Counted from the stretch's first letter, positions 15,721 to 64,000 are shown. The stretch is 64,000 bases of DNA from a virus (IMGVR_UViG_3300042878_001497:96001-160000); one strand, 5' to 3'. The notes: generated by a model from the sequence alone, not told the origin. A program made the numbers and translations.

Positions 15721-15735
15721 GATCAGAGATAAGAA

Positions 15736-19811: not shown

Positions 19812-19869
19812 TAGTTGGTTGGTATTAGTCTAGTTACTATCTTTAGGTAAATAAAAACAACAAATGGTT

Positions 19870-20109: not shown

Positions 20110-20178
20110 TTATAAAGGGTCTAGTTTAACCCAGATCTTGTTCGTATATTTAGGTATAATAAGAAATAAATAAAGGTT

Positions 20179-20304
20179 ATGAAAAAGAATGATTTGATTG
20201 TAGTAATGCAGATAGCTATTTCGCTTTTAGATAAAGGTGAAGCAAATAAAGCTAATGGAGTTTTGAAAATAGCTCTAACGGAGGAATTTAGTTCTGGAAA
20301 ATAG
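20179..20304 (+). CDS. 41 aa early peptide (not in ORF track)
   Basis: MKKNDLIVVMQIAISLLDKGEANKANGVLKIALTEEFSSGK; TAG overlaps the next GTTG. Confidence 0.7.
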   Translation: MKKNDLIVVMQIAISLLDKGEANKANGVLKIALTEEFSSGK

Positions 20305-20358
20305 TTGGTTGGTATTAGTCTAGTTACTATCTTTAGATAAATAAAAACAACAACGGTT

Positions 20359-20835: not shown

Positions 20836-20892
20836 TTGCCTCCTAAGAGTATAGTTCGTATCTTTAGGTATAATTAAAAACAAACAACGGTT

Positions 20893-21645
20893 ATGATGAA
20901 TGAAATTCAAGATCCCAATCAGCTTACTCTCGGTATTGAAAGCCAAGTATTGACTGTCGATCAGATAGAGCGAGTGGAAGCATTTAAAGAGCGATTGGAT
21001 AAGAGTAATAAGAATCTGAAAGCTTCTTTGCTCCGTAAGCAAGCTCTACTGTTAGAAAATGGCTTTGTCGAAGGTAAGGATTTTAGCTTCTCTATGGAGG
21101 AGGTAAATGAAAACGTAGATGTTAATGCTAATGGCTGGAATGATGCTGAATTAATCGTTACTGTGGATATTCTGCACGTCAAGGGGCAGTGTGCATTACT
21201 CTACGATCGATATGAAGTTACTTCTGATACGATTGTTCAGTCGACGGCTGGCTTTAGTATCGAGCAAAATAAAGTAGAGTGTTATACTATCAATAATAAT
21301 GGCCGGTGGGTTACCTTCCGTACGCTAAAAGAGAAGTTGGCTGATAAGAATTCTGCTGCTGAATGGGAGATGATATCTACTCGTAATAGGAAGTCAGTAC
21401 TCAGCTATACTGCTGAGAAGTATCAGAAGCTTGCTCCTGGGGCTGAAGTGGTGGTGGGTCGTGATGGTACGTCTAGAGGCCGTGATTACTACTCCTTCGA
21501 TACTGTGACTGTAAAGTTTGAGAATGGTAATCTGTTAGTTGTTAAGCCCGGATTTAAGAATGATGAGGAGTCAGTTTATCGCTTTATCGATGTAACGACT
21601 ACTGGTAAGAGTGCTGAAGAATTGGCTCAGTACCTCGGTCAATGA
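20893..21645 (+). CDS. early hypothetical protein
   Basis: Own promoter; 250 aa. Confidence 0.8.
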   Translation: MMNEIQDPNQLTLGIESQVLTVDQIERVEAFKERLDKSNKNLKASLLRKQALLLENGFVEGKDFSFSMEEVNENVDVNANGWNDAELIVTVDILHVKGQCALLYDRYEVTSDTIVQSTAGFSIEQNKVECYTINNNGRWVTFRTLKEKLADKNSAAEWEMISTRNRKSVLSYTAEKYQKLAPGAEVVVGRDGTSRGRDYYSFDTVTVKFENGNLLVVKPGFKNDEESVYRFIDVTTTGKSAEELAQYLGQ

Positions 21646-21809
21646 GGAGTAAGCTGATCAGAGTCTCTGAAGAGATTGCTAAGACGCTACGGAGGTGGGA
21701 TCCTAGTTCGCTAGGGTCCTACTCCATCGAGAGGAAGAAAGGTCCTAGGTACTTCACTGCAGTACAGGATTCGGACGGATGGGATATTATAACCTATTAC
21801 GTCGACTAA
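21642..21809 (+). CDS. 55 aa hypothetical protein (not in ORF track)
   Basis: MRSKLIRVSEEIAKTLRRWDP...IITYYVD; ATGA overlap. Confidence 0.55.
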   Translation: MRSKLIRVSEEIAKTLRRWDPSSLGSYSIERKKGPRYFTAVQDSDGWDIITYYVD

Positions 21810-21956
21810 GATATTTAGCCTCCTGGTTGGGCGCATATACACCAGGGTTGTTGTTTGTCTGGGTTGGGATCCTTCGGGATCTCTTCCTGGTTACAATAGT
21901 TGCCTTTAGAGAGTTTAGTTCGTATATTTAGGTATAATTAAAAACAAATAAAGGTT

Positions 21957-22139
21957 ATGTCAAACATCAAAGAAGAAGCGCTAATGGAAGTCGCTTATGC
22001 TTACGCTCATGCAGTAGGCATCCTCTCAGGCACTATGAATGTCCTGATCGATCATGTAGCTTCTTACACTGAAGAAGAGAAGATCGAGATGATGAAGAAA
22101 GCTTTGAAAGAGGCTGATGAAGCAATCGCTAATGCCTAA
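21957..22139 (+). CDS. small helical early protein
   Basis: Own promoter; 60 aa. Confidence 0.75.
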   Translation: MSNIKEEALMEVAYAYAHAVGILSGTMNVLIDHVASYTEEEKIEMMKKALKEADEAIANA

Positions 22140-22200
22140 ATAAGAGTTGGCCCTTCGGGGCCTTCTTCTTATCTTTAGTTAAATAAAAACAACAACGGTT

Positions 22201-22467
22201 ATGGTAAAAGAAATCACCTCAATGATGTCAGCACTCAAAGCAAAGGGTGTGAAGGTATGCGGCACAGCTTCAGAGTTCTACAGTGCTAAGACTCACATCG
22301 ACGGTATCTGGGTAGCAGCTGAGTACACCCCGGACCTATTCAACTACTGGTCTGAGGCTTGGGCTGATACGTTCGGTGTTAAGCCTTCACTCAACAAGCT
22401 GGTTGAGGAGTCGGGCTGGTACTTTGAGTGGCATGACGCCGGTACGATGATGGTGTGGAAGCAGTAA
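22201..22467 (+). CDS. early hypothetical protein
   Basis: Own promoter; contains GWYFEWHDAGT. Confidence 0.8.
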   Translation: MVKEITSMMSALKAKGVKVCGTASEFYSAKTHIDGIWVAAEYTPDLFNYWSEAWADTFGVKPSLNKLVEESGWYFEWHDAGTMMVWKQ

Positions 22468-22537
22468 CATAGAGTTGTCACCTGAGAGTATCCTTCATAT
22501 CTTTAGTAAACAGAATAACAACTAACAACAGCAAGAC

Positions 22538-23462: not shown

Positions 23463-23846
23463 ATGAAGCTTATCTCTGCTCTTCTTTCGGAATCTAAAAG
23501 CGGTATCTTTGACGGTAAAACTTACCTTGATGATGCTACTTCGGCTATGGAGTTTGAGAAAGGGTACGAGGCCTTAGCTAGATTTGTTCATCCTAGACTA
23601 GTTATCAAAAAAGGCCACGATCCCGATCTAAAAATGGATTTAACCATAGCTTATGAAGAGCCTTCGGATTTACACTTTAGGTATATCGAGACTACGGGAG
23701 AATTTTTCTACGATGAAAAAATCTTCAAAGCAATCCTTCAGACCCCGGCCGTAAGAGAGAAACTAGGTAAGCTTTGGAATATCTCCCCGGACCCGGTAGA
23801 GGTATTTCGCCGCTACGGTGCTGTTACAACTAAACTATCAGCGTGA
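23463..23846 (+). CDS. hypothetical protein with MKLxxLLxE leader
   Basis: Begins MKLISALLSES; late motif upstream. Confidence 0.75.
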   Translation: MKLISALLSESKSGIFDGKTYLDDATSAMEFEKGYEALARFVHPRLVIKKGHDPDLKMDLTIAYEEPSDLHFRYIETTGEFFYDEKIFKAILQTPAVREKLGKLWNISPDPVEVFRRYGAVTTKLSA

Positions 23847-41367: not shown

Positions 41368-41820
41368 ATGACTGAACCTACCTGGACTTATAAGGGTAGG
41401 GGTATCACTGAGATTTCTGACATGCCGGAAGGCACTTACGGATTTATCTATCAGATTACTCACACCCCTACCAACAAAAAATACCTCGGCAAAAAAGTCG
41501 TATACTTTACCCGCAAGGTAAAACTTACTAAAAAAGAGATTGCCGAACAGACTGGTCCTGGCCGCAAGCCAACTACCAAGCTCGTTACCAAAGAAAGTGA
41601 TTGGGATAGTTACTATGGATCAAATAAAGAGTTTCTAACCCTAACTAGAACCTACCCTAAAGAAGAATTCCAGAAAGAAATCCTAGAGTTTGTATCTTCC
41701 AAAAAGATGCTTACTTACTTTGAGTGTAAATATTTATTTAAATACGATGCTATTGAGAATAATCCTTTATACTACAATGATAACATCCTAGGTAAATTCT
41801 ACAGGAAAGATTTTCTATGA
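41368..41820 (+). CDS. GIY-YIG (Seg-like) nuclease-domain protein
   Basis: GFIYQITH...KYLGKK...YYGS...E...YYNDNI. Confidence 0.75.
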   Translation: MTEPTWTYKGRGITEISDMPEGTYGFIYQITHTPTNKKYLGKKVVYFTRKVKLTKKEIAEQTGPGRKPTTKLVTKESDWDSYYGSNKEFLTLTRTYPKEEFQKEILEFVSSKKMLTYFECKYLFKYDAIENNPLYYNDNILGKFYRKDFL

Positions 41821-42356
41821 AACTAATACAAGCCCTTCTTACTGAGAGCACTTACTCTAAAATCAAAGATGCTTTTAAGAAAGCCGGAGTTACCTATGTA
41901 GGGGGAGGATCTCATGGGGTTGTTTATAATGCACCCAATCCTGTGCCGGAATTCGGATACGAACCTAAAGAAGGCTACCTAGTAAAAATTACTCAGGATG
42001 ACATCGAAATGCAGGCTATGCTCAAGGCTCAAGGTAAGAGCTTTAAATACCTGGCAAACGTTGGCAAGGCAGTGGAGATGGAAAAAGGAGGCTGGTACCA
42101 GGTTGAGAACTTAGAACCACTACCGCAAGAATACTCTCAGGAAATTAAAAAGAACGTTCGTATATTAGATGAGTTCTTTATGGAAGGAGATAAGAGCATA
42201 CTTTCAAATCTATCCCCGTACCTACAGAAGGTCTTTATCGGTGCAAGACAGGAAATGATTCAAGCCGGAGTCGACCCTGAAGATGTTGATATGTACGGAG
42301 ATGATAACAACGTAATGGCAACCGCCGACGGTCAGATAAAATTAATCGACTATTAA
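41817..42356 (+). CDS. minimal protein-kinase-fold enzyme with MKLxxLLxE leader
   Basis: Gly-rich loop YVGGGSHGVVY, VKIT lysine, helix-C-like Glu, DMYGDDNNVM, KLIDY. Confidence 0.7.
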   Translation: MKLIQALLTESTYSKIKDAFKKAGVTYVGGGSHGVVYNAPNPVPEFGYEPKEGYLVKITQDDIEMQAMLKAQGKSFKYLANVGKAVEMEKGGWYQVENLEPLPQEYSQEIKKNVRILDEFFMEGDKSILSNLSPYLQKVFIGARQEMIQAGVDPEDVDMYGDDNNVMATADGQIKLIDY

Positions 42357-43337: not shown

Positions 43338-44116
43338 TTTATCCAGGTTCCAATTTTCTTTTAGAGCATAAGCAAAAACGCATTAAGTTCGACGGAGAGC
43401 TAAAGCAGATCACTTTACCGGACCGCCGGGTTTATAAAAGAAGCGAAGGCCTTTATTACCCCTCCGTTACTACGATCCTGCAGTACATGCCTAAGAATAA
43501 GTTCTTTGAGCAGTGGATTAAGGACGTAGGTCATAACGCCGATCTCATTATGAGAAGGGCAGGTGAAGAGGGGACGGCAGTCCACAACGCAGCCGAAGAG
43601 CTGATCAAAGGCGGGGAAGTCCAATGGATGGATGACTACGGCAAGGCTAAGTACTCGCTGCTGGTATGGCAGATGATCAATAAGTTCGTTGAAGCTTGGA
43701 AGGCTATGGCTCCTGAAGTCATCGCTACAGAAGAGTTTACCTTCTCGGACGTCCATAAGTACGCCGGTACTGCTGACATCATCGCTAAGATCGGTGATGA
43801 GGTTTGGCTGTTAGATATCAAGACCTCTAACTCTTTGCATAAGTCTCACGAGTTACAGCTGTCGGCCTATGCCAAGGCCTGGGAGGAGATGTACGGTCAG
43901 AAAATCGACCGGACAGGTATCATCTGGCTAAAATCAACCAAGAGAACTACCTCTAGCAAAGACGGAGCATTCCAAGGTAAGGGCTGGGAGCTTAAAGTAG
44001 TTGATAACATCGATGAAAACTTCGAACTGTTTCAACTCATTTACAAATTATACCTTTTAGAGCATCCTGCTGACGAACCATCCTTTCAGACATATCCTCT
44101 ATCGGTAAAGTTGTAA
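43334..44116 (+). CDS. PD-(D/E)xK exonuclease
   Basis: YPSVTTIL, GTAVH, YAGTAD, LDIKTS, QLSAYA. Confidence 0.85.
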   Translation: MIYPGSNFLLEHKQKRIKFDGELKQITLPDRRVYKRSEGLYYPSVTTILQYMPKNKFFEQWIKDVGHNADLIMRRAGEEGTAVHNAAEELIKGGEVQWMDDYGKAKYSLLVWQMINKFVEAWKAMAPEVIATEEFTFSDVHKYAGTADIIAKIGDEVWLLDIKTSNSLHKSHELQLSAYAKAWEEMYGQKIDRTGIIWLKSTKRTTSSKDGAFQGKGWELKVVDNIDENFELFQLIYKLYLLEHPADEPSFQTYPLSVKL

Positions 44117-44142
44117 GCTATTTATAAAGAGCCTATCTTTAG
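44110..44142 (+). promoter_or_regulatory. nested promoters: late TATTTATA inside the spacer of an early GTTG-N20-TATCTTTAG
   Basis: GTTG at 44110, TATTTATA at 44119, TATCTTTAG at 44134. Confidence 0.75.
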
Positions 44143-44160
44143 GGTGATAAATAGCACAAA

Positions 44161-45072
44161 ATGGGAGGAAACGTATTCGGAACCACAGACAAGATTAAGA
44201 GGGAGGACATCAAGCCTACCCTCTTAAACTTTTTAAAAGAATTCAAGAGATTATTTCCTCAAGCAGAACCTCACTTCCGTCAAATGCAGACCCTAGGATC
44301 TGTAGGTAAGAAGGAGGTTTCTGGAGATATCGATTTAGCGATTTCCGATAAAAGCTTTGATAAGATTCAGGACTGGGGTCTAGATCAGCAGCACGTCCAG
44401 GAGCTTTTCGAACTCTTCAAAAAGAGATCAAGAACAGCCTCGGAAGAGCAGCTTATGAAAAGAGCTGTGATTGTTGCTATTGCTGAAAAGATCCAAGATG
44501 CTGATACCGACCTTGCTGTCGACGTAAAAGGTTCAGCTTCGGGTGCATTATTCCTGCAAGCTCCTCAATACAACGAAGCAGGAGAGCAGCTAGATAGCAA
44601 CGTTCAAATCGATATAAATGTCGGGGATGTTGACTGGCTTAAATTTGCTTACTACTCTAGCGTTTATTCTGGAAATGTGAAAGGATTGCACCGTACCCAG
44701 TTACTGGTTGCCCTATTTGCAAATAAAGGATATATCTTCTCTCACAACTACGGAGTTAAGAATAGAGACACCCAGGAAATAGAAGCTAAATCTCCAACTG
44801 AAGCTATCGAGCTTTTAAACAAGCTCTACAAAGCAGACTTTACTTCCGAGATTCTAGAGAACTACTTCAGTGTTATGGAGGCTCTCAAAAACAATCTAAG
44901 TGAGCAGGATCTAAATAAGGTCTACGATATCTACCTCAAGATTCTTGACAGCACTAGAGCCGACATTCCGGAAGATTTACAGGACTACTGGATTGCAAAT
45001 CAGGAGAGACTGCAGCTCAAAGGTAAGTTCCTTCCAGACGATTCTAATTTAGTAAAATATAAAGTACAATGA
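44161..45072 (+). CDS. Pol-beta superfamily nucleotidyltransferase
   Basis: LGSVGKKEVSGDIDL (GS..DxD) and third Asp in VQIDI. Confidence 0.8.
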   Translation: MGGNVFGTTDKIKREDIKPTLLNFLKEFKRLFPQAEPHFRQMQTLGSVGKKEVSGDIDLAISDKSFDKIQDWGLDQQHVQELFELFKKRSRTASEEQLMKRAVIVAIAEKIQDADTDLAVDVKGSASGALFLQAPQYNEAGEQLDSNVQIDINVGDVDWLKFAYYSSVYSGNVKGLHRTQLLVALFANKGYIFSHNYGVKNRDTQEIEAKSPTEAIELLNKLYKADFTSEILENYFSVMEALKNNLSEQDLNKVYDIYLKILDSTRADIPEDLQDYWIANQERLQLKGKFLPDDSNLVKYKVQ

Positions 45073-47924
45073 GCGGTGTAGCCGGAGGAAATAGAATTAA
45101 AAAGCAAGACGTCCAAGATACGTTTAATGATTTTGAGAATAAAGTTCTCAAGAAAATCCCTGGTTACAAAGCTGCAAGTCTATCTGGAAGCGTTAAAGCT
45201 GGCACTAAAGCCGACTTCGGAGACTTAGACGTTATTAGTACCTTTGAATACGGTGATAAGAAGCTTGCCAAGCAAGCAATCATCGACACGGTATCTAAGA
45301 TGCCAGACTCTCTAATTATGCCCTTCCAAAGCGATCGGTATAAAGGTAAGAAATTTTATAACTCCGGAGAGATTATCTCGGTACTCTACCCAATCAAAGG
45401 AGCACCGGGCGAAACTATTCAAGTTGATGTTATGGTTTCTCTTTCTGAAACCGAACACCAGTTTAAGAACTCGTTTTTAGACCTACCTGCCGAAGTGCAG
45501 GGTCTAATCTTAGGACTAGTTAAGACTGCATTAGTAGAGCAGAAGCCGGCCGAAGTATTCGCCCGTATGGGAATTAAAAATCTACCCCCCTTAGAAGCAA
45601 ATCAGGAATACGAATTTAACCTTTCTAGCGTAAATCTAACTCTCAGAAAAGTAACCCTAGACAACTTTAAAGAAGTAGCTAGAGAGGAAATCTGGAAATC
45701 AAATAACTGGTCTGACGTACAGAACCTATTAAAGGATTTTGATCTTAATCAGCCCTTTGAAAAGCTTTTAGACCAGATAACAAGATCGCTTACCAATCCT
45801 AGAAGTAAGAACCGCGTAGCAGGAATCTTCCGCTCGATGGTATCGGTTAAATCCGGTGAAGTAGGTACTCCTAAAGGAGATAATAAAGAGAAGGCTTTGT
45901 CACAAGTTGCTCAAACTCTAACAGAAGGAGAAGAAAGCACCATCGGACTTTACGGAGGTGGATTCAAACCCCCTCACCGCGGTCACTTCCACATCGCTAA
46001 AGAGCTAGCCAAGGACGTAGATTCAATTAAGATCTACATCGGTGGTACAATCAGAAAAGGAGAAATAATTACAGCTCAGCAGTCAAAAGATATCTGGGGG
46101 ATCTATGCCAAGTATTTAGGTGTGCCCACTGAAATTGAAATAGCACCGGTCACCCCTATCCTTTCAATCTACCAGGAAATCGAAGCTAACAAAAAACAAG
46201 ACTACTTAGTAGGTTCCTCTACTGACCCGGCAGATCTAGCTAAGTTTAAAGCTCTACAGCTCAATAAGGATAATCTCTACGATAGAGCAAAATTAAAAAT
46301 TGTGTCAACGATCAACGAAGAAAAGCTATCTGCTACTACAATTAGAACAGATATGGACTACCTAAAAGCAGGTCAATGGATGCCTGAAGAACTTTCAGCA
46401 GACGATAAAAAAACAGTACTAGGAATCCTAAAAGCAACCCCAGAGTACAAAATGGCAGAAGCCATCGACGATGTATTCAACAGCTTCCTAGGAGAAGGTA
46501 CAAAAGAAAAAGCAGAAAAGAAAGAAGAAGAAACTTCTGAAGTAACCATGGGAACTCCCATGGCACCGATTGCCGTAGTACCTTCTGAGATTCGTCAGAA
46601 AATGCAAAACCTTACCGCATACTTCCAGAAGCTTGCCCCGGACGATGTGATCGTAGACTTTAACGGTCAATCGATCGTTATTACCCCGATGTACTACAAC
46701 AAAGCTCTACCGATGGGACCAGCTGACTACACTCCCGAGCAGAAACCTATCGACGAATACCAGGATACTGCAGCAGCTATCAACTACGTACCTTATATCG
46801 CTGGTATTCTAGAGCATATGATTAAGAAGGGTATGACGGTATTACCGCTGCCGGAGATCAAAACTAGAGAAGATGAAGAAAACGCTGCTAACGTTTTTGG
46901 TAGGACTGCTTACTACGATCCTACTAAGAAAGAAGTCGTGCTGTATGTAACAGGACGTCACCCTAAAGATGTACTGCGTTCATTCTGCCATGAGATGATT
47001 CATCACATGCAGAACCTAGAAGATCGTCTACCAGCTTTTACTACTACCAACACCCAGGAAGATTCTACATTAAATGATATTGAAAAGGAAGCTCATTTCC
47101 TTGGTAGCATGCTCATGAGAGAGTACGAAGATTCGATTAAGAAGGAAGATAGCCTGGAAGAAGGTACCAAATACCGTTCAATCGTTGCTGACGTTAGAAG
47201 AGCTGTTAACGATGCTCTTAATGTCTTAATTAGTGGTAAAAAGCTAAAAGGATATAACGTTAAGACCAAAAGAGAGCCTACTAAAAAGGATTTAGAGTTT
47301 GCTGAAAAATACGGAATGTCTCCTTTAGGAGCTATGCTTTACAACGAATATCAATCAGCATACCTGGGAGAGTTTACAAGCAAAAGCGAGAAAGGAACTA
47401 AGACAGAAGACGGCAAGCCGGTAAATGTAGGGGTAAGTTTAAAATTTGCTCAAACCGACCAAGTAGCACCGGGCAAATTCCACATCGACGGTGAAGCCGG
47501 TTCCGATGAAGGAGAAATCGATATCATACTAGCTTTTAATCCGGCTGACGGGACTAATATGCTTCAACAAATCCAACCAATCTTAACCGATCTTATTCGT
47601 CACGAAACCGAACACCTAACCCAATCCGGGGTAGAAGTTCGCCCGGATAAGTGGATGAGAAAGGACGAAGCTAGAAGAAGAGCTATTCGTCAGAACCCGG
47701 AGATATGGTACAAGTATTACATGCTTCCTAAAGAAGTAGATGCTAACATCCAGGGCTTGCATACAAAGTCAAAGTACGAGAAGAAAGACTTCCAGTCAAC
47801 CGTTGACCAGTACCTAGAAGACCTAGTACAGGGTGAAATTATAACAGTTGCAAATAAGCAAAAAATTTACGATCTTTGGAAGAGCAGAATTCCCCAAATC
47901 GGAGGTATTCCAAACTTAAAATAA
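45069..47924 (+). CDS. multidomain protein: Pol-beta NTase + HxGH nucleotidyltransferase + two HExxH zincin-like domains
   Basis: SGSVKAGTKADFGDLDV/IQVDV; GGGFKPPHRGH..LSATTIR; HEMIH..EKEA; HETEH..EVDA. Confidence 0.8.
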   Translation: MSGVAGGNRIKKQDVQDTFNDFENKVLKKIPGYKAASLSGSVKAGTKADFGDLDVISTFEYGDKKLAKQAIIDTVSKMPDSLIMPFQSDRYKGKKFYNSGEIISVLYPIKGAPGETIQVDVMVSLSETEHQFKNSFLDLPAEVQGLILGLVKTALVEQKPAEVFARMGIKNLPPLEANQEYEFNLSSVNLTLRKVTLDNFKEVAREEIWKSNNWSDVQNLLKDFDLNQPFEKLLDQITRSLTNPRSKNRVAGIFRSMVSVKSGEVGTPKGDNKEKALSQVAQTLTEGEESTIGLYGGGFKPPHRGHFHIAKELAKDVDSIKIYIGGTIRKGEIITAQQSKDIWGIYAKYLGVPTEIEIAPVTPILSIYQEIEANKKQDYLVGSSTDPADLAKFKALQLNKDNLYDRAKLKIVSTINEEKLSATTIRTDMDYLKAGQWMPEELSADDKKTVLGILKATPEYKMAEAIDDVFNSFLGEGTKEKAEKKEEETSEVTMGTPMAPIAVVPSEIRQKMQNLTAYFQKLAPDDVIVDFNGQSIVITPMYYNKALPMGPADYTPEQKPIDEYQDTAAAINYVPYIAGILEHMIKKGMTVLPLPEIKTREDEENAANVFGRTAYYDPTKKEVVLYVTGRHPKDVLRSFCHEMIHHMQNLEDRLPAFTTTNTQEDSTLNDIEKEAHFLGSMLMREYEDSIKKEDSLEEGTKYRSIVADVRRAVNDALNVLISGKKLKGYNVKTKREPTKKDLEFAEKYGMSPLGAMLYNEYQSAYLGEFTSKSEKGTKTEDGKPVNVGVSLKFAQTDQVAPGKFHIDGEAGSDEGEIDIILAFNPADGTNMLQQIQPILTDLIRHETEHLTQSGVEVRPDKWMRKDEARRRAIRQNPEIWYKYYMLPKEVDANIQGLHTKSKYEKKDFQSTVDQYLEDLVQGEIITVANKQKIYDLWKSRIPQIGGIPNLK

Positions 47925-47925
47925 A

Positions 47926-48486
47926 ATGGGCAAGTTAGCTGACTTACTACTTACTGAAGAGGAGCAAAATCCAAAACCAAAAGGCAAACTATTCTGTGAT
48001 ATGGATGGCGTGCTTACGGATTTTGTAGGCCGCTTTGACCATTACTTCGGTATGCATCCAAACGAGTACAAGGAGAAAAAAGGTGACGGAGGCTTCTGGA
48101 GCGTCATTGCACCTATCGGTCAGATCTTTTGGGAAGGAATGGAATGGACCCCGCACGGCCTACAGCTATGGGAACACATTAGAGATTTTAACCCAACTCT
48201 CTTAACTGCCCCCTCTGAAGAACAGTCTTCAAGAGACGGTAAGGTAGAATGGGCAAATAGGGAATTAGAACCTATTCCTCCGATCATCTTCCGTCCGGCT
48301 AAAGAAAAGCATCTAGAGTGTACAGGACCCGATGATATCCTAATCGACGATAGGGAAGATACCATTCAGAGATGGATAGATGCAGGAGGTGTAGGAATCT
48401 ACCATCCAGAAAACGGAGACCCATCCAACGTTATTATAAGATTAGAAAAGTTAGGTTATGTCAAGCCATCTGAAGAAAGAATTTGA
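47926..48486 (+). CDS. HAD phosphatase, 5'(3')-nucleotidase (NT5C)-like
   Basis: FCDMDGVLTDF, LLTAP, KVEW, ILIDDR; leader MGKLADLLLTE. Confidence 0.85.
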   Translation: MGKLADLLLTEEEQNPKPKGKLFCDMDGVLTDFVGRFDHYFGMHPNEYKEKKGDGGFWSVIAPIGQIFWEGMEWTPHGLQLWEHIRDFNPTLLTAPSEEQSSRDGKVEWANRELEPIPPIIFRPAKEKHLECTGPDDILIDDREDTIQRWIDAGGVGIYHPENGDPSNVIIRLEKLGYVKPSEERI

Positions 48487-49030
48487 TGAAAGGGCTGTAA
48501 ATCGGGCCCGAAACATTATTTCTAAAAACTTTACATCCCGTACCATGGTTGGTTCCGGGTACGAGAAAGCGAAAGAAAAGCATAGCGAAGGTGACGTCTG
48601 GGAAGAAGATGGTAGAGCATGGACCATTAAAAACGGTCTTAAACAAAATGTTACCAAGTTAGATGCTGCTAAAAAGCTAACTCAAATACCGTTAACTTGT
48701 CCTTCCTGCGGTGGTTCAATGAATCATCACCTAGCCAAGAAGATGTACAAAATCCATGGCTTCTGCTTTGACTGTACCGTTGATATGGAAGCCGGTCTAC
48801 GTAGAGCCGGCCTCTACAAGGAGTATGAAAAGCAGATGATGCAGGGCAACATGCAGGCCTGGGCACAAGGACTTGAGCAATGGGTTCAAGAGCAGATTAA
48901 CGAATCTATGACTTTTGTAACCGAAGACGGAACGATAGAAGATTGGAATAATAATTCTGCCAAGCAGAAAGCCGAAATTACGAAGAACGTCAACGAGTAC
49001 CTACAGCACCTTAAGAAGCACCTGGAGTAA
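48458..49030 (+). CDS. zinc-finger hypothetical protein
   Basis: EGDVWEEDGRAWTIKNG; CPSC...CFDC. Confidence 0.7.
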   Translation: MSSHLKKEFDERAVNRARNIISKNFTSRTMVGSGYEKAKEKHSEGDVWEEDGRAWTIKNGLKQNVTKLDAAKKLTQIPLTCPSCGGSMNHHLAKKMYKIHGFCFDCTVDMEAGLRRAGLYKEYEKQMMQGNMQAWAQGLEQWVQEQINESMTFVTEDGTIEDWNNNSAKQKAEITKNVNEYLQHLKKHLE

Positions 49031-49050
49031 CTATTTATAAAGAAACTCCA

Positions 49051-49980
49051 ATGCTTTTAACTGAGTCAAAAGTTACTGCGGTATTAACAGAAGGTCTTCG
49101 CTACCATTTGCAGACCGGTACTCCCTTATACGAGAACATCTACCGTCCAGGATCAGAACAATACTTTACTACCATCCGTCAGGCACGTCTTCTTATGAAT
49201 GAAGGTCTACTACGGTGCCTCTGCCTAGAAGATATGGAACTTCTATTTGAAACCGAGGTAGGAGAGTACGCAGAGTTTGAAGGCAAGCAAGTACCTTTAG
49301 ATTTCCCAATGATTGGAGAAATTAGCTTTATAATTCCGGATGCAGAAGCAACCTGGCAGCAAGCCTCTACCAATCCTCAGATCCAGAAGATGGGTGAGGA
49401 GCAGTGGAAGAAGCTTTCCGACATCTCAAAAGCAGCCGGAGGATTTGGATATACAGCCAAATACACAGACATCGATCCAGTGATGGCTGATCTATCAGGA
49501 GAAGAAACAGTTACTTTTTCAGACGACGATCAAATCCAGATGCCAGTAGTGCTTAAGTACCAGGAAGCCGGTCAAGTAAAATACGAAATCGTAGTAGGAG
49601 AAGATATCCTACATAGCCTCATTTCTTCAGGCAAGGATACAGACCCGGACATCTGGGTAGTTGATATCACAAGCGAGGCTCTAGCAGAGGCTAAGTACCG
49701 TGGATCAGAAGTAGCTCTAAACAAACCCAAAAGAGGAGGACCTAAGAAATTCTACGTTTATACTCGTAACCCTAAGACAGGAAAGATCATCAAAGTCAAC
49801 TTCGGAGGTACTACAGGACTGACTGCCAAGATCAACAATCCTGAAGCACGCCGGAACTTCGCCAGCCGTCATAACTGCGCTACTAAAAACGACAAAACCA
49901 AGCCCGGGTACTGGTCTTGCAGACTACCAAGGTACGCCAAGCTTATCGGACTCAAATCAAGCTTTGGAGGATTCTGGTGA
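49051..49980 (+). CDS. late multi-segment protein with basic C-terminal domain
   Basis: Begins MLLTES; acidic middle; LAEA followed by basic KKFYVY..VNFG..RRNFASRHNC..YWSC. Confidence 0.7.
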   Translation: MLLTESKVTAVLTEGLRYHLQTGTPLYENIYRPGSEQYFTTIRQARLLMNEGLLRCLCLEDMELLFETEVGEYAEFEGKQVPLDFPMIGEISFIIPDAEATWQQASTNPQIQKMGEEQWKKLSDISKAAGGFGYTAKYTDIDPVMADLSGEETVTFSDDDQIQMPVVLKYQEAGQVKYEIVVGEDILHSLISSGKDTDPDIWVVDITSEALAEAKYRGSEVALNKPKRGGPKKFYVYTRNPKTGKIIKVNFGGTTGLTAKINNPEARRNFASRHNCATKNDKTKPGYWSCRLPRYAKLIGLKSSFGGFW

Positions 49981-50281
49981 TCGTCCGTACATCGATCTAG
50001 AAAGCGGAATCGATGAGAATGGCGAACATTACGTCATTCGAAAGTTTGATAGCGATATCGATATTCAAGAGCTGTACTGGCATAGAGACGATGAGGATCG
50101 CGAGATTCATATACTGGAATGCGGTTATGAATGGCACATACAATTTGACGATCAACTCCCGATCCTGCTCTGGCCGGGAGATAAGCTATTTATACAAAGG
50201 CACGATTGGCATCGTGTCATTAAAGGTTCCGGTCATTTACTTATAAAAATTTTTAAACATGGCAAAGAAAAAGCAAACTGA
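49964..50281 (+). CDS. cupin-like small protein
   Basis: WHRDDEDR...PGDKLFI...WHRVIKG; TTG start uncertain. Confidence 0.6.
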   Translation: MEDSGDRPYIDLESGIDENGEHYVIRKFDSDIDIQELYWHRDDEDREIHILECGYEWHIQFDDQLPILLWPGDKLFIQRHDWHRVIKGSGHLLIKIFKHGKEKAN

Positions 50282-50558
50282 TAACGAGATTATCGACGAA
50301 GTAGTAGCTGAAGTAACTCCAGAAGAGACTCTGGTAGTTGAAGAAGTAGCAGTAGTTGAAGAGCCAGTAGTTATCGAAGCACCAGTAGCAACCCCTGCTC
50401 CTAAAGCAGAGAAGAAAGCTGAGACATTAGCTCCAGGAGAATACTACCAGGGAAAAAAGATTGAGAAATACGTCTCTAACCTAGGAAAGAAGGCCGTTGC
50501 AATCATCGACGGAAAAAGAGTTAAAGTCCTTAAAGCAGACGTAGTCAAAGTCAAGTAA
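50259..50558 (+). CDS. low-complexity hypothetical protein
   Basis: Glu/Val/Pro/Ala-rich linker with a basic C-terminus. Confidence 0.65.
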   Translation: MAKKKQTDNEIIDEVVAEVTPEETLVVEEVAVVEEPVVIEAPVATPAPKAEKKAETLAPGEYYQGKKIEKYVSNLGKKAVAIIDGKRVKVLKADVVKVK

Positions 50559-50701
50559 TGGCTAAGATCAAGTCTCAAGCGGTCTCAACATTCCAGGACA
50601 GGCCGAAGGTCAGCAGACCGGGGGTACATTCTAAGACTAAGACTTCAGTTCTAAAAACTAGCAAGAACTACACCAAGAAGTACCGTGGCCAAGGTAAGTA
50701 A
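50558..50701 (+). CDS. 47 aa basic peptide ending KKYRGQGK (not in ORF track)
   Basis: Hand translation MAKIKSQAVSTFQDRPKVSRPGVHSKTKTSVLKTSKNYTKKYRGQGK; TAATG overlap. Confidence 0.7.
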   Translation: MAKIKSQAVSTFQDRPKVSRPGVHSKTKTSVLKTSKNYTKKYRGQGK

Positions 50702-50708
50702 ATCTGCT

Positions 50709-50882
50709 ATGCACGCTTTTATGCGAGAGCTACTCCTAGAGGTAATCAAGGAGAAGCCCGGACTATGGGCTAATATCCGTGCACAAAAAGCTAGAGGAGA
50801 GAAACCTTCTCACCCAAACAGTAAAGCTTTCAAAGATGCTGTTAAGGCTGGAAGAGAGATTCTTAAAAAAGAAAAGAAATGA
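50709..50882 (+). CDS. small basic late protein
   Basis: Likely ATG at 50709; MRELLLEVIKE followed by GLWANIRA. Confidence 0.6.
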   Translation: MHAFMRELLLEVIKEKPGLWANIRAQKARGEKPSHPNSKAFKDAVKAGREILKKEKK

Positions 50883-51100
50883 AACTAATAGACCTCCTCT
50901 TAGAAGAGAACAACCCGGAAGATAAAGTTACTTTTGATATTCCCTTATTCATCAGACTTCTAGAGTACGCCAGAGAAGACGCCCAGGCAGACGTAGATCT
51001 ACACTTTATGGCCGATAACGCTATCAGACTCTCTGTAGAGGGTGAAACTCTAACAATGGATCATTACGATCAAATCGTTAAGCAAGATGAAGCTAAGTAA
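50879..51100 (+). CDS. small protein with MKLxxLLxE leader
   Basis: MKLIDLLLEEN...DIPLFIRLLEYAREDA. Confidence 0.75.
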   Translation: MKLIDLLLEENNPEDKVTFDIPLFIRLLEYAREDAQADVDLHFMADNAIRLSVEGETLTMDHYDQIVKQDEAK

Positions 51101-51500
51101 ACTCATCAGCGAAGCAGAGGTTAAATGTCCTCCTGCCACCCAAAACATCGATCTCAATCTTGAGAACAGACAGAAAGCCATTGACGAATACGGATACGGC
51201 CCTGCTGACCCTTCCCAGAAGAACGAAAAATTCTGGAAGAAGAAAATGGATATGTGGCAGGTCGATACGGCTGAAGAGCTTAAGAATATGGTGTGCGGTA
51301 CTTGTGCTGCCTTCGATATTACTTCTAAGACTTTAGACTGTATCGCTAAGGGCATCGGATCAGACATGGGTTCGGAAGATCCTTACGATGTTATTGATGC
51401 CGGTCAGCTTGGTTACTGCCGCTTTTTAAAGTTCAAGTGTGCAGCTGCTAGAACCTGTGACGCCTGGGTGATCGGAGGCCCGATCAAAGATAAGGAGTAA
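51087..51500 (+). CDS. Cys-rich protein with MKLxxLIxE leader
   Basis: MKLSKLISEA; CGTC..GYC..KC..TC. Confidence 0.75.
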   Translation: MKLSKLISEAEVKCPPATQNIDLNLENRQKAIDEYGYGPADPSQKNEKFWKKKMDMWQVDTAEELKNMVCGTCAAFDITSKTLDCIAKGIGSDMGSEDPYDVIDAGQLGYCRFLKFKCAAARTCDAWVIGGPIKDKE

Positions 51501-51712
51501 TGAAAAAATCTGAATTCCAGAACTTGATTCAAGAGCTAGCAGCAGAAGTGCTAACAGAAGGAATTCACGATCCTATGAATCCTGGCATTCTCAAAAAGAG
51601 GTTAGGTAAGCTTTCATGCTCTAAAGTAAGAGCGGCTAGAGGAAAACTTAAAGATAAAGGTACTACATATGCTAAAGCCCTGCAGAGGTACCTTAACTAT
51701 CACTGTCAGTGA
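51500..51712 (+). CDS. small basic protein with LxE leader
   Basis: Begins MKKSEFQNLIQELAAEVLTEG. Confidence 0.75.
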   Translation: MKKSEFQNLIQELAAEVLTEGIHDPMNPGILKKRLGKLSCSKVRAARGKLKDKGTTYAKALQRYLNYHCQ

Positions 51713-51738
51713 TCTATTTATAAAGAAAAAACCTTGCC

Positions 51739-51963
51739 ATGTCTAAAGTAACTTTCAACGGAGGCTATTACCTAACAGGTACTTCACCAGTATCAGGTAG
51801 CTGGAGAGCAATTACCTCAGTATCTTCAAGCACTGTGATCGAATCTGCTGTATTTGCAGACGGTAGTACAGTTGCAAACCTACCTCTACCAGCTGGTCTT
51901 AACCTAGAAGTAAAGATCAGACAAATTAAACTTTCAACCGGAGGAGCTTTTTTAGCTAAGTAA
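51739..51963 (+). CDS. small beta-rich late protein (possible virion decoration)
   Basis: 74 aa; own late motif at 51715. Confidence 0.6.
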   Translation: MSKVTFNGGYYLTGTSPVSGSWRAITSVSSSTVIESAVFADGSTVANLPLPAGLNLEVKIRQIKLSTGGAFLAK

Positions 51964-51964
51964 T

Positions 51965-52849
51965 ATGAAGCTACAGGAAAGTATTATGAGCGATTTGGAT
52001 GCTCTTGCAAGAGAGTATTCAGATGTAGAGGAGTACATCCTAGCAGCTTTTTCAGATAAGTACTTTAATCTTAAGAAAGATAAAGACACCATTGAGTTTT
52101 TAAGGATTATTTTTGATAATGCACACAAGGACCTAGACATGGCTCCTATGCAAGTAACCGAGAAAAAAGCTACATACTGCGGCAGATGCGGACACACTCA
52201 CGTTAAAGGAACTCCTTGCCCAAGACCTTTTAAAGAAGGGTTATCACCTTACGGCGATGATGCATACTTCGTAGTACCAAACAAAGGAAAGATGAAAAAA
52301 GAAGATATTTTAAAAGCTATTAAAGAAGTACTAGCTGAAAATACAGTACAAGTCAGCAAAATAACCGGCCGTACTGGAGAAACAGAAGTGGATGTGGTAA
52401 CACCTAAGCAGAAGGCAGAGTTAGAAAAAGCTGGTGCAAGAGTCACCCCAATGGAGGAAGACCTAGATCTAGGACACCAGGATGACGAACCGCATATGAT
52501 CAAATCAGAGCTTTACAAGATTGCTAAATACGCTCTTGAGCTCTACAAAATGGTTGATCAGTTTGAAGGTAAAGGAGAAGTAGATTTTCCGGCCTGGTGG
52601 CAGTCTAAAGTCACAAAAGCATCTTCGATGGTTAGCAGTGCCAAGCACTACCTTGAGTTCGAACTAGCTGAACCGGCAATGGATCAGGCAGTAGTAGGCG
52701 ATGAAATGCCTGTTACAGAAAAACTAGACCCAGTCGGCCACGAAGATGAGGATGTTGATAATGACGGTAAGAAGAATACCAAAACCGACAAGTACATCAA
52801 AAACAGAAGAGTAAAGATCGGTCAAGCAATCGCAAGTCATAAGAAGTAA
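51965..52849 (+). CDS. mosaic late protein with several LxE-type sites
   Basis: MKLQES; VTEKK; CGRCGHTH..CP; internal MKKEDILKAIKEVLAEN; DLGHQDDEPHM; LDPVGHEDEDVDNDG. Confidence 0.7.
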   Translation: MKLQESIMSDLDALAREYSDVEEYILAAFSDKYFNLKKDKDTIEFLRIIFDNAHKDLDMAPMQVTEKKATYCGRCGHTHVKGTPCPRPFKEGLSPYGDDAYFVVPNKGKMKKEDILKAIKEVLAENTVQVSKITGRTGETEVDVVTPKQKAELEKAGARVTPMEEDLDLGHQDDEPHMIKSELYKIAKYALELYKMVDQFEGKGEVDFPAWWQSKVTKASSMVSSAKHYLEFELAEPAMDQAVVGDEMPVTEKLDPVGHEDEDVDNDGKKNTKTDKYIKNRRVKIGQAIASHKK

Positions 52850-53412
52850 TGAAGCTACAGGATCTAAGACATATCATCGAGGAAGCCTATCTTGAGGTGC
52901 TAATTGAAGCAGCTGAAGAACCAGCTACCGGTCCTAAGAGAGATCAAACGGACCCGACACTAGATATTCTTCAAAAATTTCCTACCTTACAGAAGACGTT
53001 AACACATTTGTTAACTTCCCAATATATGGAATTTGTAGAAAAGGTAGGATGGATGTCACCCAAACCTTCTACGTTTAAGGTCGAATTTAAATCCGGACAG
53101 GATATGACCTTAAAGTGGATGGGTAAAAACTTTGAAGCCAATATTGAAGGCAAGCGCTACTACCTAGCCAACCTTCCGGAATTCCAGCAGGCATTAGACA
53201 AGATCGGAATGATGCTCGCACACGGTCCTATTCAGACAGGAATGGATGCATTAGGAGGAGAAGAAGGAGCCGGAGGCGATGTATTCGCCGGAGCCGGAGC
53301 ACCTGAACCCGCAGCCGGAGCAGAAACAGGAGCTGAAGCCGGTGCTGGAGCAGGAGCAGAAACACCCGCTACACCAGCCGCAGGAGAAGAAGACGTATTT
53401 GCAGGACTATAA
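52849..53412 (+). CDS. late hypothetical protein with LxE leader
   Basis: MKLQDLRHIIEEAYLEVLIEA; Ala/Gly/Glu-rich tail. Confidence 0.7.
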   Translation: MKLQDLRHIIEEAYLEVLIEAAEEPATGPKRDQTDPTLDILQKFPTLQKTLTHLLTSQYMEFVEKVGWMSPKPSTFKVEFKSGQDMTLKWMGKNFEANIEGKRYYLANLPEFQQALDKIGMMLAHGPIQTGMDALGGEEGAGGDVFAGAGAPEPAAGAETGAEAGAGAGAETPATPAAGEEDVFAGL

Positions 53413-54572
53413 TGAATCTAATAGATAAGGTTATTGAGGAATGGGCTTGGAGATGCCCTAAAGGATACCCACAGTTGGACTCTAAGGAAGATCTTCGTAT
53501 CTTTGAAGGATTATTCAATATAAACCTTACCGAAGCATCTGTGAAGTCTAATACGCTCGCCGCCAAGCAAGTACTCTTACAAAAATATCCCGAGACTTTC
53601 TCGGCAATGGCTGATTCTGCCCCCCACCGTATAGGTAACAGAGGTAAGATATCTGCTGCGGATTTTACTGCTATCATCGAAAAAGAATTTGGCACCGCCC
53701 CAGAATATTTCGCTCCAAACACATCTCAGAACAATAAACAAATTAAACCAGACGGTAGCCGAACATTCCCATTATTCCGATTTAAAACAGAGAAAGGAGA
53801 TGTTGCTCTAATTCTAGCCGGCGGTCCTAAAGAAGAGACCTCTGAAAGACAGGAGCACGGAGTGATCAACACTATTAATTCTATTGAAGGAATTAAGACA
53901 ATTAAAGATCAAAACGGACACACTATCGAAGGTGTAGTTCGGGCAGAAAAAATGTCACCAGTGCCGGGATACAGGCATGAACCTTACTCTGATATTAAAC
54001 TTGTAATTCAAGGTACCGAAGATCCTTTCTTAATCTCAGCTAAAGGGCTTACCTCTCCTACCATTGCAGGAGGAGGCCTACAGGGAGCTATGAAACTATC
54101 CCCTAAAGTACAAGAGTTTATAAAACAGTTCTACGAAGATGCATACCAGTATTACAAAAAGATCTTTGAAGAGCATTCCGAACTGACTCCCGAATATAAC
54201 CTCTACAAAACAAGCTACTTTAAAGACGTTAACAGAAAAGTTCCTGAAGATATTGTACTAGAGATCGTAAAAGGTACCCCAGCAGTAGGAGGAGAAGTAG
54301 ACGCATACTACATCGGAGATATGAACGTACAGCCTCAGGTAGAAGGAAACGTAATTACTTTTAATGGTAATATTAAACCAGTAGAAGAGTTTGCAAAGCA
54401 GGATTTATATCTTCATATTAGAAAAAGAGATGGAGATTACTACTTTGTAGATAATATGCAGACAGTCAACGGAGTAACCATGCCGAGAATCTTCGCTAGC
54501 AAACCTAACGGAACTACAGCTAGCTCTAGATTAGGATCACACACCTCCCTACGTGGAACAGTAATTATTTAA
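53412..54572 (+). CDS. putative PD-(D/E)xK restriction-fold nuclease with N-terminal leader
   Basis: MNLIDKVIEEWAWRCPKGYP..LTEA, then ERQE..PYSDIKL..LISAKG. Confidence 0.5.
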   Translation: MNLIDKVIEEWAWRCPKGYPQLDSKEDLRIFEGLFNINLTEASVKSNTLAAKQVLLQKYPETFSAMADSAPHRIGNRGKISAADFTAIIEKEFGTAPEYFAPNTSQNNKQIKPDGSRTFPLFRFKTEKGDVALILAGGPKEETSERQEHGVINTINSIEGIKTIKDQNGHTIEGVVRAEKMSPVPGYRHEPYSDIKLVIQGTEDPFLISAKGLTSPTIAGGGLQGAMKLSPKVQEFIKQFYEDAYQYYKKIFEEHSELTPEYNLYKTSYFKDVNRKVPEDIVLEIVKGTPAVGGEVDAYYIGDMNVQPQVEGNVITFNGNIKPVEEFAKQDLYLHIRKRDGDYYFVDNMQTVNGVTMPRIFASKPNGTTASSRLGSHTSLRGTVII

Positions 54573-60693: not shown

Positions 60694-61272
60694 ATGGCAA
60701 ATCTCTTAATTGAATATACCCCCTTCCGTCCTACGATCACCGAGTCCGTCAAAAGACCCGGTATCTTTGAGGTGACAGGTGTTATGCAGAGAGCCGGAAA
60801 GAAGAACCAAAACGGAAGAATCTACGAAAGAGCTATCCTCGATAGAGAGGTTAAGAAGTACATGGAAGCTTTCGTTAAAGTAGGTAACGCATACGGTGAA
60901 CTAGATCACCCAGAATCTCCAATTGTATCACTAAAGAATGCTTCACACGTTGTGAAGGATTTATGGTGGGATGGAGATGATCTAATGGGTAAGGTTGAGC
61001 TACTCAACACCCCGGCCGGTAACATCGTAAAAGAAATCATCAAAGGCGGACACACAATCGGTATCTCTTCTAGAGGTACAGGTTCAGTCCAGCCAATTGG
61101 TGAGAACACCCTAATGGTTAAAGACGATTTTGAATTGGTGTGCTGGGATTTCGTATCGAATCCTTCTACACACGGAGCATTTCTAAACCCCGTCTCTTTA
61201 AATGAAACAAAGCAAGTTGTAGACCGCTACAGCAAGCTTCATAACATTATCGGAGACATTTTAAGAGCATAA
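60694..61272 (+). CDS. prohead protease (gp21-like)
   Basis: NQNGRIY, GELDHP, GISSRGTGS, WDFVSNPSTHGA. Confidence 0.95.
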   Translation: MANLLIEYTPFRPTITESVKRPGIFEVTGVMQRAGKKNQNGRIYERAILDREVKKYMEAFVKVGNAYGELDHPESPIVSLKNASHVVKDLWWDGDDLMGKVELLNTPAGNIVKEIIKGGHTIGISSRGTGSVQPIGENTLMVKDDFELVCWDFVSNPSTHGAFLNPVSLNETKQVVDRYSKLHNIIGDILRA

Positions 61273-63467: not shown

Positions 63468-64000
63468 ATGGAATTAAATTCTCTTTTAAACGAATCAGCA
63501 CAGGGCTTCAAGTCTCTGCAAGCTGATGCTGCTAGACTCGCTGACAAGTGGTCTGCAACTGGTCTTCTTGAGGGTCTTGGCAACGAGATCGACAAGAACA
63601 ATATGTCTATGATCCTTGAGAACCAGGCAAAACAAATCATCAAGGAATCCAACGCTACCAATGCTAACGGCGGAGCCGAGCAGTGGGCTGGTGTTGCTCT
63701 ACCGCTTGTAAGAAAGGTATTCGCTCAGATCGCTGCTAAAGATTTCGTATCTGTACAGCCTATGAACCTTCCTTCAGGTCTTGTATTCTATCTTGACTTC
63801 AAGTACGGTACTACTGCTAACGGAAGAACTGACGGTGACAATATGTACGGTAACGTATCTACTGCTAACAACAAGATGTCTGTAGACGAGGAAGTTTCTG
63901 GCGGCCTTTACGGTGCTGGTCAATTCGGCTACACTATCAACTCAGCTTCTTTAGCTATCACTCAATCTACTGGTGCTGCTACTTCAGCTTCTATCGGATA
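63468..64000 (+). CDS. major capsid protein (gp23-like), 3'-truncated by the window (not in ORF track)
   Basis: MELNSLLNES...KWSATGLLEGL...MILENQAKQ...LPLVRKVF...VSVQPMNLPSGLVFYLDFKYG. Confidence 0.93.
   Translation, partial: MELNSLLNESAQGFKSLQADAARLADKWSATGLLEGLGNEIDKNNMSMILENQAKQIIKESNATNANGGAEQWAGVALPLVRKVFAQIAAKDFVSVQPMNLPSGLVFYLDFKYGTTANGRTDGDNMYGNVSTANNKMSVDEEVSGGLYGAGQFGYTINSASLAITQSTGAATSASIG

Follow-up and report, generated by a model that had tools for sequence, protein, structure and literature searches.

A putative head-targeted enzyme polyprotein with prohead-protease motifs at its module boundaries in a T4-like phage of Bacteroidota

In bacteriophage T4, the prohead protease gp21 cuts its substrates after the motif L/I-x-E, and a 10-residue capsid targeting sequence (CTS) directs the internal proteins to the head (PMC9026906). 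A second group of described systems, the polyvalent proteins, unites disparate enzymatic domains, embedded zincin-like peptidases among them, in one polypeptide for which delivery with the DNA has been predicted (Iyer et al. 2017, PMC5512222). Here we describe a locus of three genes, P0001, P0002 and P0003, from a T4-like phage of Bacteroidota whose capsid and prohead protease genes are of T4 type. The locus lies in a 64,000-nucleotide (nt) stretch of viral DNA (IMGVR_UViG_3300042878_001497:96001-160000; hereafter the window, from whose first letter positions are counted), itself part of an IMG/VR viral contig of 102 kb with an estimated completeness of 63%. We give a little better than an even chance to the reading that the locus encodes a polyprotein set targeted to the head, where the prohead protease would mature it before it enters the cell together with the DNA. 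An initial annotation had described three abutting genes at this position, and the open reading frames (ORFs) bear this out: all three lie on the + strand, as does every gene in this stretch of the locus, and they abut or overlap by 4 nt. The motifs listed in that annotation all recur in the translations and are invariant in family alignments, which were built from diverse homologues and underlie every statement of invariance below; its domain calls (nucleotidyltransferases (NTases), an HxGH domain, zincins and a HAD phosphatase) were right as well. The genes and modules are as follows.

44161-45072, + strand: P0001, 303 amino acids (aa), a stand-alone PolX-like nucleotidyltransferase with the predicted mature N-terminus GGNVF...
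45069-47924, + strand: P0002, 951 aa
45069-45926, + strand: P0002 aa 1-286 (N domain), predicted minimal family-X-polymerase-like domain (palm and thumb), ending at the LTE/G site (45918-45926)
45927-46496, + strand: P0002 aa 287-476 (H domain), HIGH-type (NMNAT/PPAT-like) nucleotidyltransferase, ending at the LGE/G site (46488-46496)
46497-47162, + strand: P0002 aa 477-698, acidic linker and zincin 1 (HEMIH 46989-47003), ending at the LEE/G site (47154-47162)
47163-47924, + strand: P0002 aa 699-951, second HExxH domain, zincin 2 (HETEH 47601-47615)
47926-48486, + strand: P0003, 186 aa, an NT5C-like HAD 5'(3')-deoxynucleotidase
47926-47958, + strand: CTS-like leader of P0003, 11 residues, ending in LTE

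The boundaries between these modules carry the central observation. P0002 contains exactly three L-x-E-G sites, LTE/G (284-286), LGE/G (474-476) and LEE/G (696-698; the slash marks the presumed point of cleavage), where 0.41 would be expected by chance, and the three coincide with its three domain junctions. In short junction windows taken from representatives below 50% identity, with composition-preserving shuffles as the control, [LIM]xE is present at 47/47 N/H junctions, at 47 of 52 junctions between the H domain and zincin 1 and at 41 of 42 between the two zincins (about 52%, 54% and 44% in the shuffles), in all at 135 of 141 junctions against some 71 expected, counts that overstate the significance of the enrichment because the related sequences are not independent. 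The junction column between zincin 1 and zincin 2 reads [LM] (40/46), any residue, E (44/46) and G (44/46). Together with the leaders described below, this pattern points to an organising principle that was absent from the initial annotation, namely a polyprotein in which each module boundary holds a prohead-protease site, accompanied by CTS-like leaders on the modules that stand alone, within a modular family whose style recalls the polyvalent proteins. The window also encodes a protease and a capsid protein of the T4 type.

60694-61272, + strand: gp21-type prohead protease (Peptidase_S77; PF03420, E 2.8e-32, over the cut-off), whose own N-terminus carries LIE
63468-63998, + strand: gp23-type major capsid protein, the 5' part of the gene lying in the window (PF07068, E 6.7e-82)

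Peptidase_S77 is encoded in all seven family-carrying genomes that are at least 90% complete. The N-terminal region of the gp23-type protein contains the sites LNE/S, LLE/G and IKE/S, and the scaffold protein likewise carries such sites.

Relatives of P0001 and P0002 place the same motif to the residue. Where PolX-like modules are encoded by stand-alone genes, their conserved N-termini follow the initiator Met (M/GGNVF..., M/SGxAGG...); where such modules are fused, [LI]xE stands directly before GGN[VIL]F in 6/6 cases and before SGxAGG in 4/4 (10/10 in all), as in ...INE/GGNVF and ...LNE/SGSAGGN. This position, exactly ahead of the mature N-termini, is what precise cleavage after Glu predicts, and we regard it as the most telling of the observations. 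Additionally, the modules that stand alone tend to begin with a leader. P0003 contains DMDGV (aa 25-29) and matches PHROG 2643 (5'-3' deoxyribonucleotidase, E 2.3e-23), while the Pfam NT5C model scores 14.7 against 24.8 on P0003 and reaches E 1e-5 in fused relatives. Stand-alone NT5C genes share the leader consensus M-G-x-L-x-D-L-L-L-x-E, and of 43 distinct N-termini of this kind 42 have [LIM]xE before the HAD core begins; NT5C is instead fused C-terminally to zincin 2 in at least 22 representatives, through a junction that reads ...LSLP[LVI]FE/ in 21 of 22. The kinases found upstream in other relatives begin M-I-[SK]-L-x-x-L-[IL]-x-E, with the P-loop strand following at once, and in one fused relative GGH is preceded by a leader of nine residues whose last three are LTE. 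The NT5C and kinase leaders resemble the 10-residue T4 CTS in how long they are, where they stand and the cleavage site at their end. Of 128 ORFs in this genome, 19 have an N-terminal [LIVMF][LI]xE (shuffles give 7.0 +/- 2.4), those of the capsid protein and of the protease among them, and the ORFs concerned cluster at 47.9-54.6 kb, between the locus operon and the head genes. Consecutive ORFs with CTS-like starts ending in [LI]xE begin at 47926, 49051, 50879, 51087, 51500, 52849 and 53412 (window 47926-54572), and two further ORFs, at 23463 (23463-23846) and 41817 (41817-42356), have 10-residue leaders ending in LSE and LTE. These ORFs, none of which apart from P0003 itself (47926) has a family assignment, encode candidate internal head proteins.

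What sequences and models show directly is the protease gene, the fusions, the places of the motifs and how well these are kept across the family, the catalytic residues and the folds; for packaging, cleavage and ejection we infer the following course. The P0002 polyprotein would enter the prohead, where the T4 gp21-type protease would cut it after the three L-x-E sites and thereby free four enzymes: two zincin-type metalloenzymes, a minimal PolX-like NTase and an NMNAT/PPAT-like adenylyltransferase. P0003, the NT5C-like phosphatase, would enter by way of its 11-residue N-terminal targeting peptide, which the same protease would then remove, and the 303-aa PolX-like paralogue P0001 would belong to the same set, to which we assign it because relatives have it fused into the polyprotein. 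Once matured, the enzymes would leave the head along with the DNA and do their work at the very start of infection, like T4 Alt, IPI and the polyvalent proteins of other phages. Carriage in the head is supported by the fusion of NT5C and P0001-like modules into the polyprotein in relatives, and by a motif, TATTTATA, that is common to the operon and the head genes. The spacer before P0001 holds two elements.

44119-44126, + strand: TATTTATA motif, candidate late-type promoter element in the 44-nt spacer before P0001
44134-44153, + strand: TATCTTTAG ... ATAAATA element, candidate early or host-type promoter in the spacer before P0001

TATTTATA has 14 copies in the window, all on the + strand (6.2 in shuffles); 12 of the 14 fall outside ORFs of at least 120 aa, eight stand 9-70 nt before such an ORF, and the head genes at 56856, 58765 and 62071 are among those preceded. 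The sites include 38763, 44119, 49032, 56832, 58738 and 61993. The motif equals the late promoter of T4, TATAAATA, in reverse complement, and may serve this phage group as a late promoter. Exact TATCTTTAG is concentrated elsewhere, with 12 of its 14 + strand copies at 12800-22510 in a region of small ORFs (12-23 kb), and the composite TATCTTTAG...ATAAATA element also precedes the ORFs at 12827 and 20359; TATCTTTAG, which is similar to the -7 element of Bacteroidota (TAnnTTTG), may be an early promoter. The initial annotation had read early and late motifs in this promoter. Two recurrent motifs do occupy the spacer; the timing, early for TATCTTTAG and late for TATTTATA, is presumptive rather than demonstrated.

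Several points weigh against head packaging. Neither P0001 nor P0002 of this phage has an N-terminal CTS-like leader, and an in-frame stop lies three codons upstream of the P0001 ATG. The non-independence of related sequences noted above bears on the junction counts, and the conservation of E-G-[RK]-Y at the start of zincin 2 could be partly structural. Packaging and cleavage are predicted from sequence, both for this phage and for its sole cultured relatives, the Flavobacterium myophages vB_FspM_immuto (43% identity for P0002, 67% for P0001; host Flavobacterium sp. LMO8). Finally, the operon directly follows a primase and a PD-(D/E)XK exonuclease gene and also bears the early-region motif, and because of these neighbours and this motif some likelihood remains that the enzymes work inside the cell, in the metabolism of DNA or of nucleotides. 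The neighbourhood is conserved: synteny in immuto is identical, with a SegE-like gene, a hypothetical gene, the primase and the exonuclease followed by the genes of the locus, and a P0001-like module and an N domain occur together in 19/19 loci. If the enzymes stayed unpackaged, the PolX-like pair would gap-fill or repair phage DNA, the HIGH-type transferase and NT5C would adjust nucleotide or cofactor pools, and the LxE linkers would be incidental or have some other use. The conserved adjacency to primase and exonuclease, the early-region promoter motif and the lack of a leader on P0001 and P0002 fit such a role, as does the standing of NT5C enzymes as classic phage nucleotide-pool genes (PHROG 2643). 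Left unexplained by it are the LxE/G sites at all three junctions, the [LI]xE placed exactly ahead of mature N-termini in 10/10 fusions, and the 10-residue, LxE-ending leaders of stand-alone NT5C and kinase genes, and we consider it unlikely.

Searches of P0001 and P0002 against Pfam, PHROGs, NCBIfam and PDB sequences gave nothing above threshold except the HxGH motif, and the folds discussed here were read from AlphaFold models of P0002 (aa 1-480, pLDDT 92.6; aa 488-951, pLDDT 86.1). Modelling followed by Foldseek and related searches carried the initial domain assignments part of the way, in that the N domain, the H domain and zincin 1 match known enzyme folds and no match was obtained for zincin 2, which was searched as part of a two-domain model. 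From its model, the N domain appears to be a minimal PolX-like enzyme, and not the CCA-repair or CBASS type of NTase first proposed, because its Foldseek and VIA matches are to PolX, because PF14792 is detected in distant homologues and because its key residues are invariant. The best 50 Foldseek matches are all PolX (E 5e-8 to 3e-6), and VIA-align superposes the domain on the palm and thumb of Pol beta (Z 11.9), on TdT (Z 11.9) and on the PolX of African swine fever virus (ASFV; Z 11.1, 162/176 residues at 2.9 A). Whereas PolX matches span 162-180 residues, TUTase, poly(A) polymerase and CD-NTase match only in the palm (about 105-110 residues, Z about 9). The Pfam model DNA_pol_B_palm (PF14792) scores 25.5-25.7 bits against a cut-off of 25 in remote N-domain homologues and matches 7 of 46 N-domain family members at E<=1e-3; in P0001 and P0002 themselves the Pfam search gave no match to it. 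The motifs GS...GDLD (aa 40-54) and QVD (D120) contribute the invariant residues G40, D52, D54 and D120, S41 not being among the listed invariants. In the model the palm begins at residue 1, and the 8-kDa dRP-lyase domain and the helix-hairpin-helix fingers are absent. An identity as CD-NTase, TUTase or poly(A) polymerase was rejected on the palm-limited match, and a CCA-adding identity on match lists that contain only PolX, CCA enzymes not being among the matches shown.

P0001 is probably a divergent paralogue of this domain. It carries GS...GDID (aa 46-58) and QID (D151), with G46-S47, D56, D58 and D151 invariant, and hhalign aligns it with the N-domain family (E 1.4e-4, probability 53%) with the catalytic motifs in register; BLASTP of P0001 against P0002 finds no significant pairwise similarity, the link being seen by profile comparison alone. 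The palm-and-thumb superposition was made on the N domain of P0002, and P0001 is tied to the PolX fold via hhalign only. Complex prediction between the two families returned a score of 0.00, which is no answer and speaks neither for nor against binding. Like ASFV Pol X (PDB 5hr9), the N domain consists of palm and thumb only, with no 8-kDa or fingers domains and with a complete GS...DxD...D set. It differs from the viral enzyme in sequence (identity about 13%), in an additional helical region of about 55 residues and in a conserved GGN N-terminus, and the phage enzymes are two divergent paralogues, always found together, whose activity on DNA is predicted from the models.

The H domain is, as modelled, a complete NMNAT/PPAT-type HIGH fold. 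Its motifs, HRGH (303-306) and SATTIR (421-426), contain the invariant residues H306, T423 and R426 and conform to a conserved family pattern of (H/T)xGH and SATxxR. VIA aligns it with NadM (Z 13.5), PPAT (Z 13.5; 152/159, 3.1 A), archaeal NMNAT (Z 12.7) and NadR (Z 11.5). The NCBIfam equivalog and subfamily models score 11-25 bits against cut-offs of 103-341, covering only the first 35 or so residues, and Pfam CTP_transf_like scores 18.4 on P0002 against a cut-off of 21; with all equivalog models far below their cut-offs, the domain is assigned by fold and not by substrate. NadM, archaeal NMNAT and PPAT thus share with the phage domain the full fold (Z 12.7-13.5) and the (H/T)xGH and SxTxxR motifs, whereas the phage domain meets no equivalog model and is always fused to a zincin domain, a fusion that we know of in no characterised NMNAT or PPAT.

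The rebuilding of nicotinamide adenine dinucleotide (NAD+), one of the roles offered in the initial annotation, would make the HIGH domain an NMNAT, would explain the kinase of most relatives as a pairing like that of kinase and NMNAT within NadR, and would have the nucleotidase interconvert nicotinamide mononucleotide and nicotinamide riboside, the whole module, packaged or not, countering NAD+-depleting defences. The best structural matches do include NadM, archaeal NMNAT and NadR (Z 11.5-13.5), in 53 of 73 loci what comes directly before the HIGH domain is a Zeta/AAA_33-type kinase, and the immuto homologue of P0002 is annotated as NMNAT in GenBank. PPAT, however, matches equally well (Z 13.5), the NMNAT, NadD and NadR equivalog models reach 15-25 bits against cut-offs of 100-340, and neither the two zincins nor the PolX-like pair that here takes the place of the kinase would have a role. 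Nampt/NAPRTase (PF04095), the usual partner, was found in one of the seven family-carrying genomes at least 90% complete and was not found in the 63%-complete contig of this phage, and its absence from six of seven complete genomes weakens the case for NAD+ rebuilding of the NARP2 type. A nearby gene named 'NAD synthetase' (immuto gene 171, the name also being that of PHROG 447; window 41368-41820) encodes a SegE-type GIY-YIG domain (PF19835, E 1e-25); its NAD annotation looks wrong, and we rejected it as NAD context. On this evidence the initial suggestion did not hold up, and we regard an NAD+ module as quite unlikely. Two-step activation of cofactors or nucleoside diphosphate (NDP)-sugars is known in NadR, RibF, CoA synthase and HldE/GmhB, and the trio of kinase, HIGH transferase and HAD phosphatase present in most relatives resembles it by analogy.

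The zincin half of P0002 contains two dissimilar domains (no significant similarity by BLASTP of zincin 1 against zincin 2). The core of zincin 1 spans about aa 563-694 and carries HEMIH at 641-645, with RHPKDV...HEMIHH and E672/E674 invariant; its model suggests a zincin fold like that of Wss1, SPRTN, IrrE and ArdC, with HExxH and a downstream ligand. Nearly all the VIA matches are zincins, among them Wss1 (Z 8.3), PprI/IrrE (8.0), SPRTN (7.4), ArdC (6.7) and also BepA. The compact fold and the Glu 27 residues downstream of HExxH, as in IrrE, are shared with Wss1, SPRTN, IrrE (PprI) and ArdC, known relatives that all act in a DNA context; zincin 1 differs from them in that Z is only 6.7-8.3, in the absence of a Pfam SprT-like or Peptidase_M78 match and in that no DNA-binding domain was identified. 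Zincin 2 carries HETEH at 845-849, with RHExEHLT and KE(889)vDA invariant, and its model shows a beta-sheet followed by the helix that bears HExxH. With the two-domain model as query, Foldseek, VIA and an ESM Atlas fold search gave no significant match for zincin 2, because zincin 1 fills the match lists. For the zincin half as a whole, Foldseek gave no match at E<=1e-3, the ESM Atlas fold search yielded clusters of the family itself and no others, and a profile search of the PDB yielded just a weak M48 HExxH match. An Atlas feature search of zincin 2 points to LPD23 and SprT-like domains (0.88), which serve as leads only.

These domains bear on a further explanation, in which the embedded zincins and not the prohead protease cut the LxE junctions of a self-processing polyvalent protein before or after delivery. 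To our knowledge, zincins do not typically cut between Glu and a small P1' residue. The zincins are the most constant parts of the family, both HExxH motifs and the Glu residues downstream of them are invariant, and autoproteolysis by embedded metallopeptidases has been proposed for polyvalent proteins (Iyer et al. 2017, PMC5512222). The junction motif nevertheless equals gp21 specificity and recurs in the N-termini of capsid, scaffold and protease, which are not expected substrates of zincins, and we hold self-processing to be decidedly improbable.

Returning to enzymes carried in the head, their most probable target would be DNA, with end or gap chemistry on phage or host DNA ranked first because of the PolX-like pair, the Wss1/SPRTN/IrrE/ArdC-like zincin and the 5'(3')-phosphatase; nucleotide-cofactor chemistry, for example on NAD+, would rank second. 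Of the role in host takeover or counter-defence proposed initially, the general idea is compatible with these findings, and nothing in them speaks specifically for RNA end repair or signal interference.

The family to which P0002 belongs is large and heavily shuffled. It comprises 4,350 clusters (50% identity) in a profile search, and the members sampled all come from T4-like phages with genomes of 155-190 kb; a literature search, which did not cover all journals, found no paper describing them. In relatives, P0001-like modules are fused ahead of the N domain or else joined straight to the H domain and zincin 1. Of 73 related loci, 53 have the HIGH domain preceded directly by a gene for a Zeta_toxin/AAA_33 P-loop kinase and 19 have the PolX-like pair, while one has neither and none has both. 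On the related contig L002, the kinase at 5119-6084 occupies the place of the pair, as in 52 other loci, the two being strictly mutually exclusive; a PDB sequence search with this kinase found no matches. Further modules, of kinds typical of polyvalent proteins, include ART-PolyVal (2/46 relatives), GNAT (1/46), DUF6934 and a ParB-like DGNHRH module, whereas P0002 has no match to a hallmark polyvalent Pfam model (MPTase-PolyVal, ART-PolyVal, LPD families) at E<=1. In one family representative, P0288, a ParB/Srx-like module (DGNHRH) and a second HAD-like module are inserted between zincin 2 and zincin 1, around aa 640-700.

The surroundings of the locus provide several other observations. One gene directly downstream is conserved.

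48458-49030, + strand: P0004, 190 aa, a CxxC...CxxC zinc ribbon protein and conserved downstream neighbour

A P0004-like ORF is present in 68 fetched related loci, and searches of Pfam, PHROGs and NCBIfam gave P0004 no family assignment. Window positions 1-11703 contain about 14 back-to-back ORFs, several with Rossmann N-termini of NAD-dependent epimerase/dehydratase type (GxxGxxG right after the start), which suggests a sugar-nucleotide or glycan biosynthesis cluster of the phage. On L002, a glutamine-synthetase-like protein (Gln-synt_N, Gln-synt_C; 10209-11210) is encoded a few genes downstream of the locus. In immuto DNA, G is fully replaced by fdPreQ1 (PMC10516641); the contig of 102 kb of the present phage gave no match to the Pfam models for TGT, QueC or GTP cyclohydrolase I, which at 63% completeness does not settle whether it has a 7-deazaguanine link.

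A wider proposal, which we put forward tentatively and as doubtful on balance, is that the heads of aquatic T4-like phages deliver a polyprotein-derived, protease-matured kit for DNA ends and nucleotides, in which a HIGH adenylyltransferase, two DNA-context zincins and a 5'(3')-phosphatase are joined by a pair of minimal PolX-like polymerases that always occur together or, in its place, by a P-loop kinase. If so, a family-X-type polymerase would for the first time be seen to travel in the head of a phage, and motifs would offer a general means of reading off which proteins T4-like phages inject. Should the main reading of a head-targeted set be right, a very large, wholly unannotated family (annotated, if at all, as 'NMNAT') would become interpretable as injected cargo, and the L-x-E junction rule and the leader M-x-x-L-x-x-L-L-x-E would predict injected proteins of Bacteroidota T4-like phages from sequence only, with predicted cargo of types not known from the head, namely PolX-like enzymes, HIGH transferases, Zeta-like kinases and NT5C.

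The comparison with the two described systems can now be drawn. With the internal head proteins and Alt of T4, the phage shares a genome-encoded protease of gp21 type, exposed L/I-x-E sites, a leader of about 10 residues that ends in the cleavage site on stand-alone modules (NT5C here, the kinase in relatives), and a locus near the head genes with an upstream motif in common with them. T4 cargo, in contrast, is single-domain, whereas the phage would package, as we read it, several enzymes in one polyprotein with a site at each junction; we know of no PolX-like enzyme, HIGH transferase, zincin or NT5C among T4 head cargo. The polyvalent proteins resemble P0002 in its multi-enzyme architecture with zincins, and some relatives carry hallmark modules of that group (ART-PolyVal, GNAT or ParB-like). 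P0002 differs from them in matching none of their Pfam models, in having NTases that are PolX-like and not of the minimal NTox45-like kind, and in module boundaries that consist of a defined prohead-protease motif, where theirs are ascribed to presumed autoproteolysis. Head-packaged effectors and polyvalent proteins were thus already known; what this locus would add to them are module boundaries written in the code of the prohead protease, the enzyme types concerned and the size of an unannotated family.

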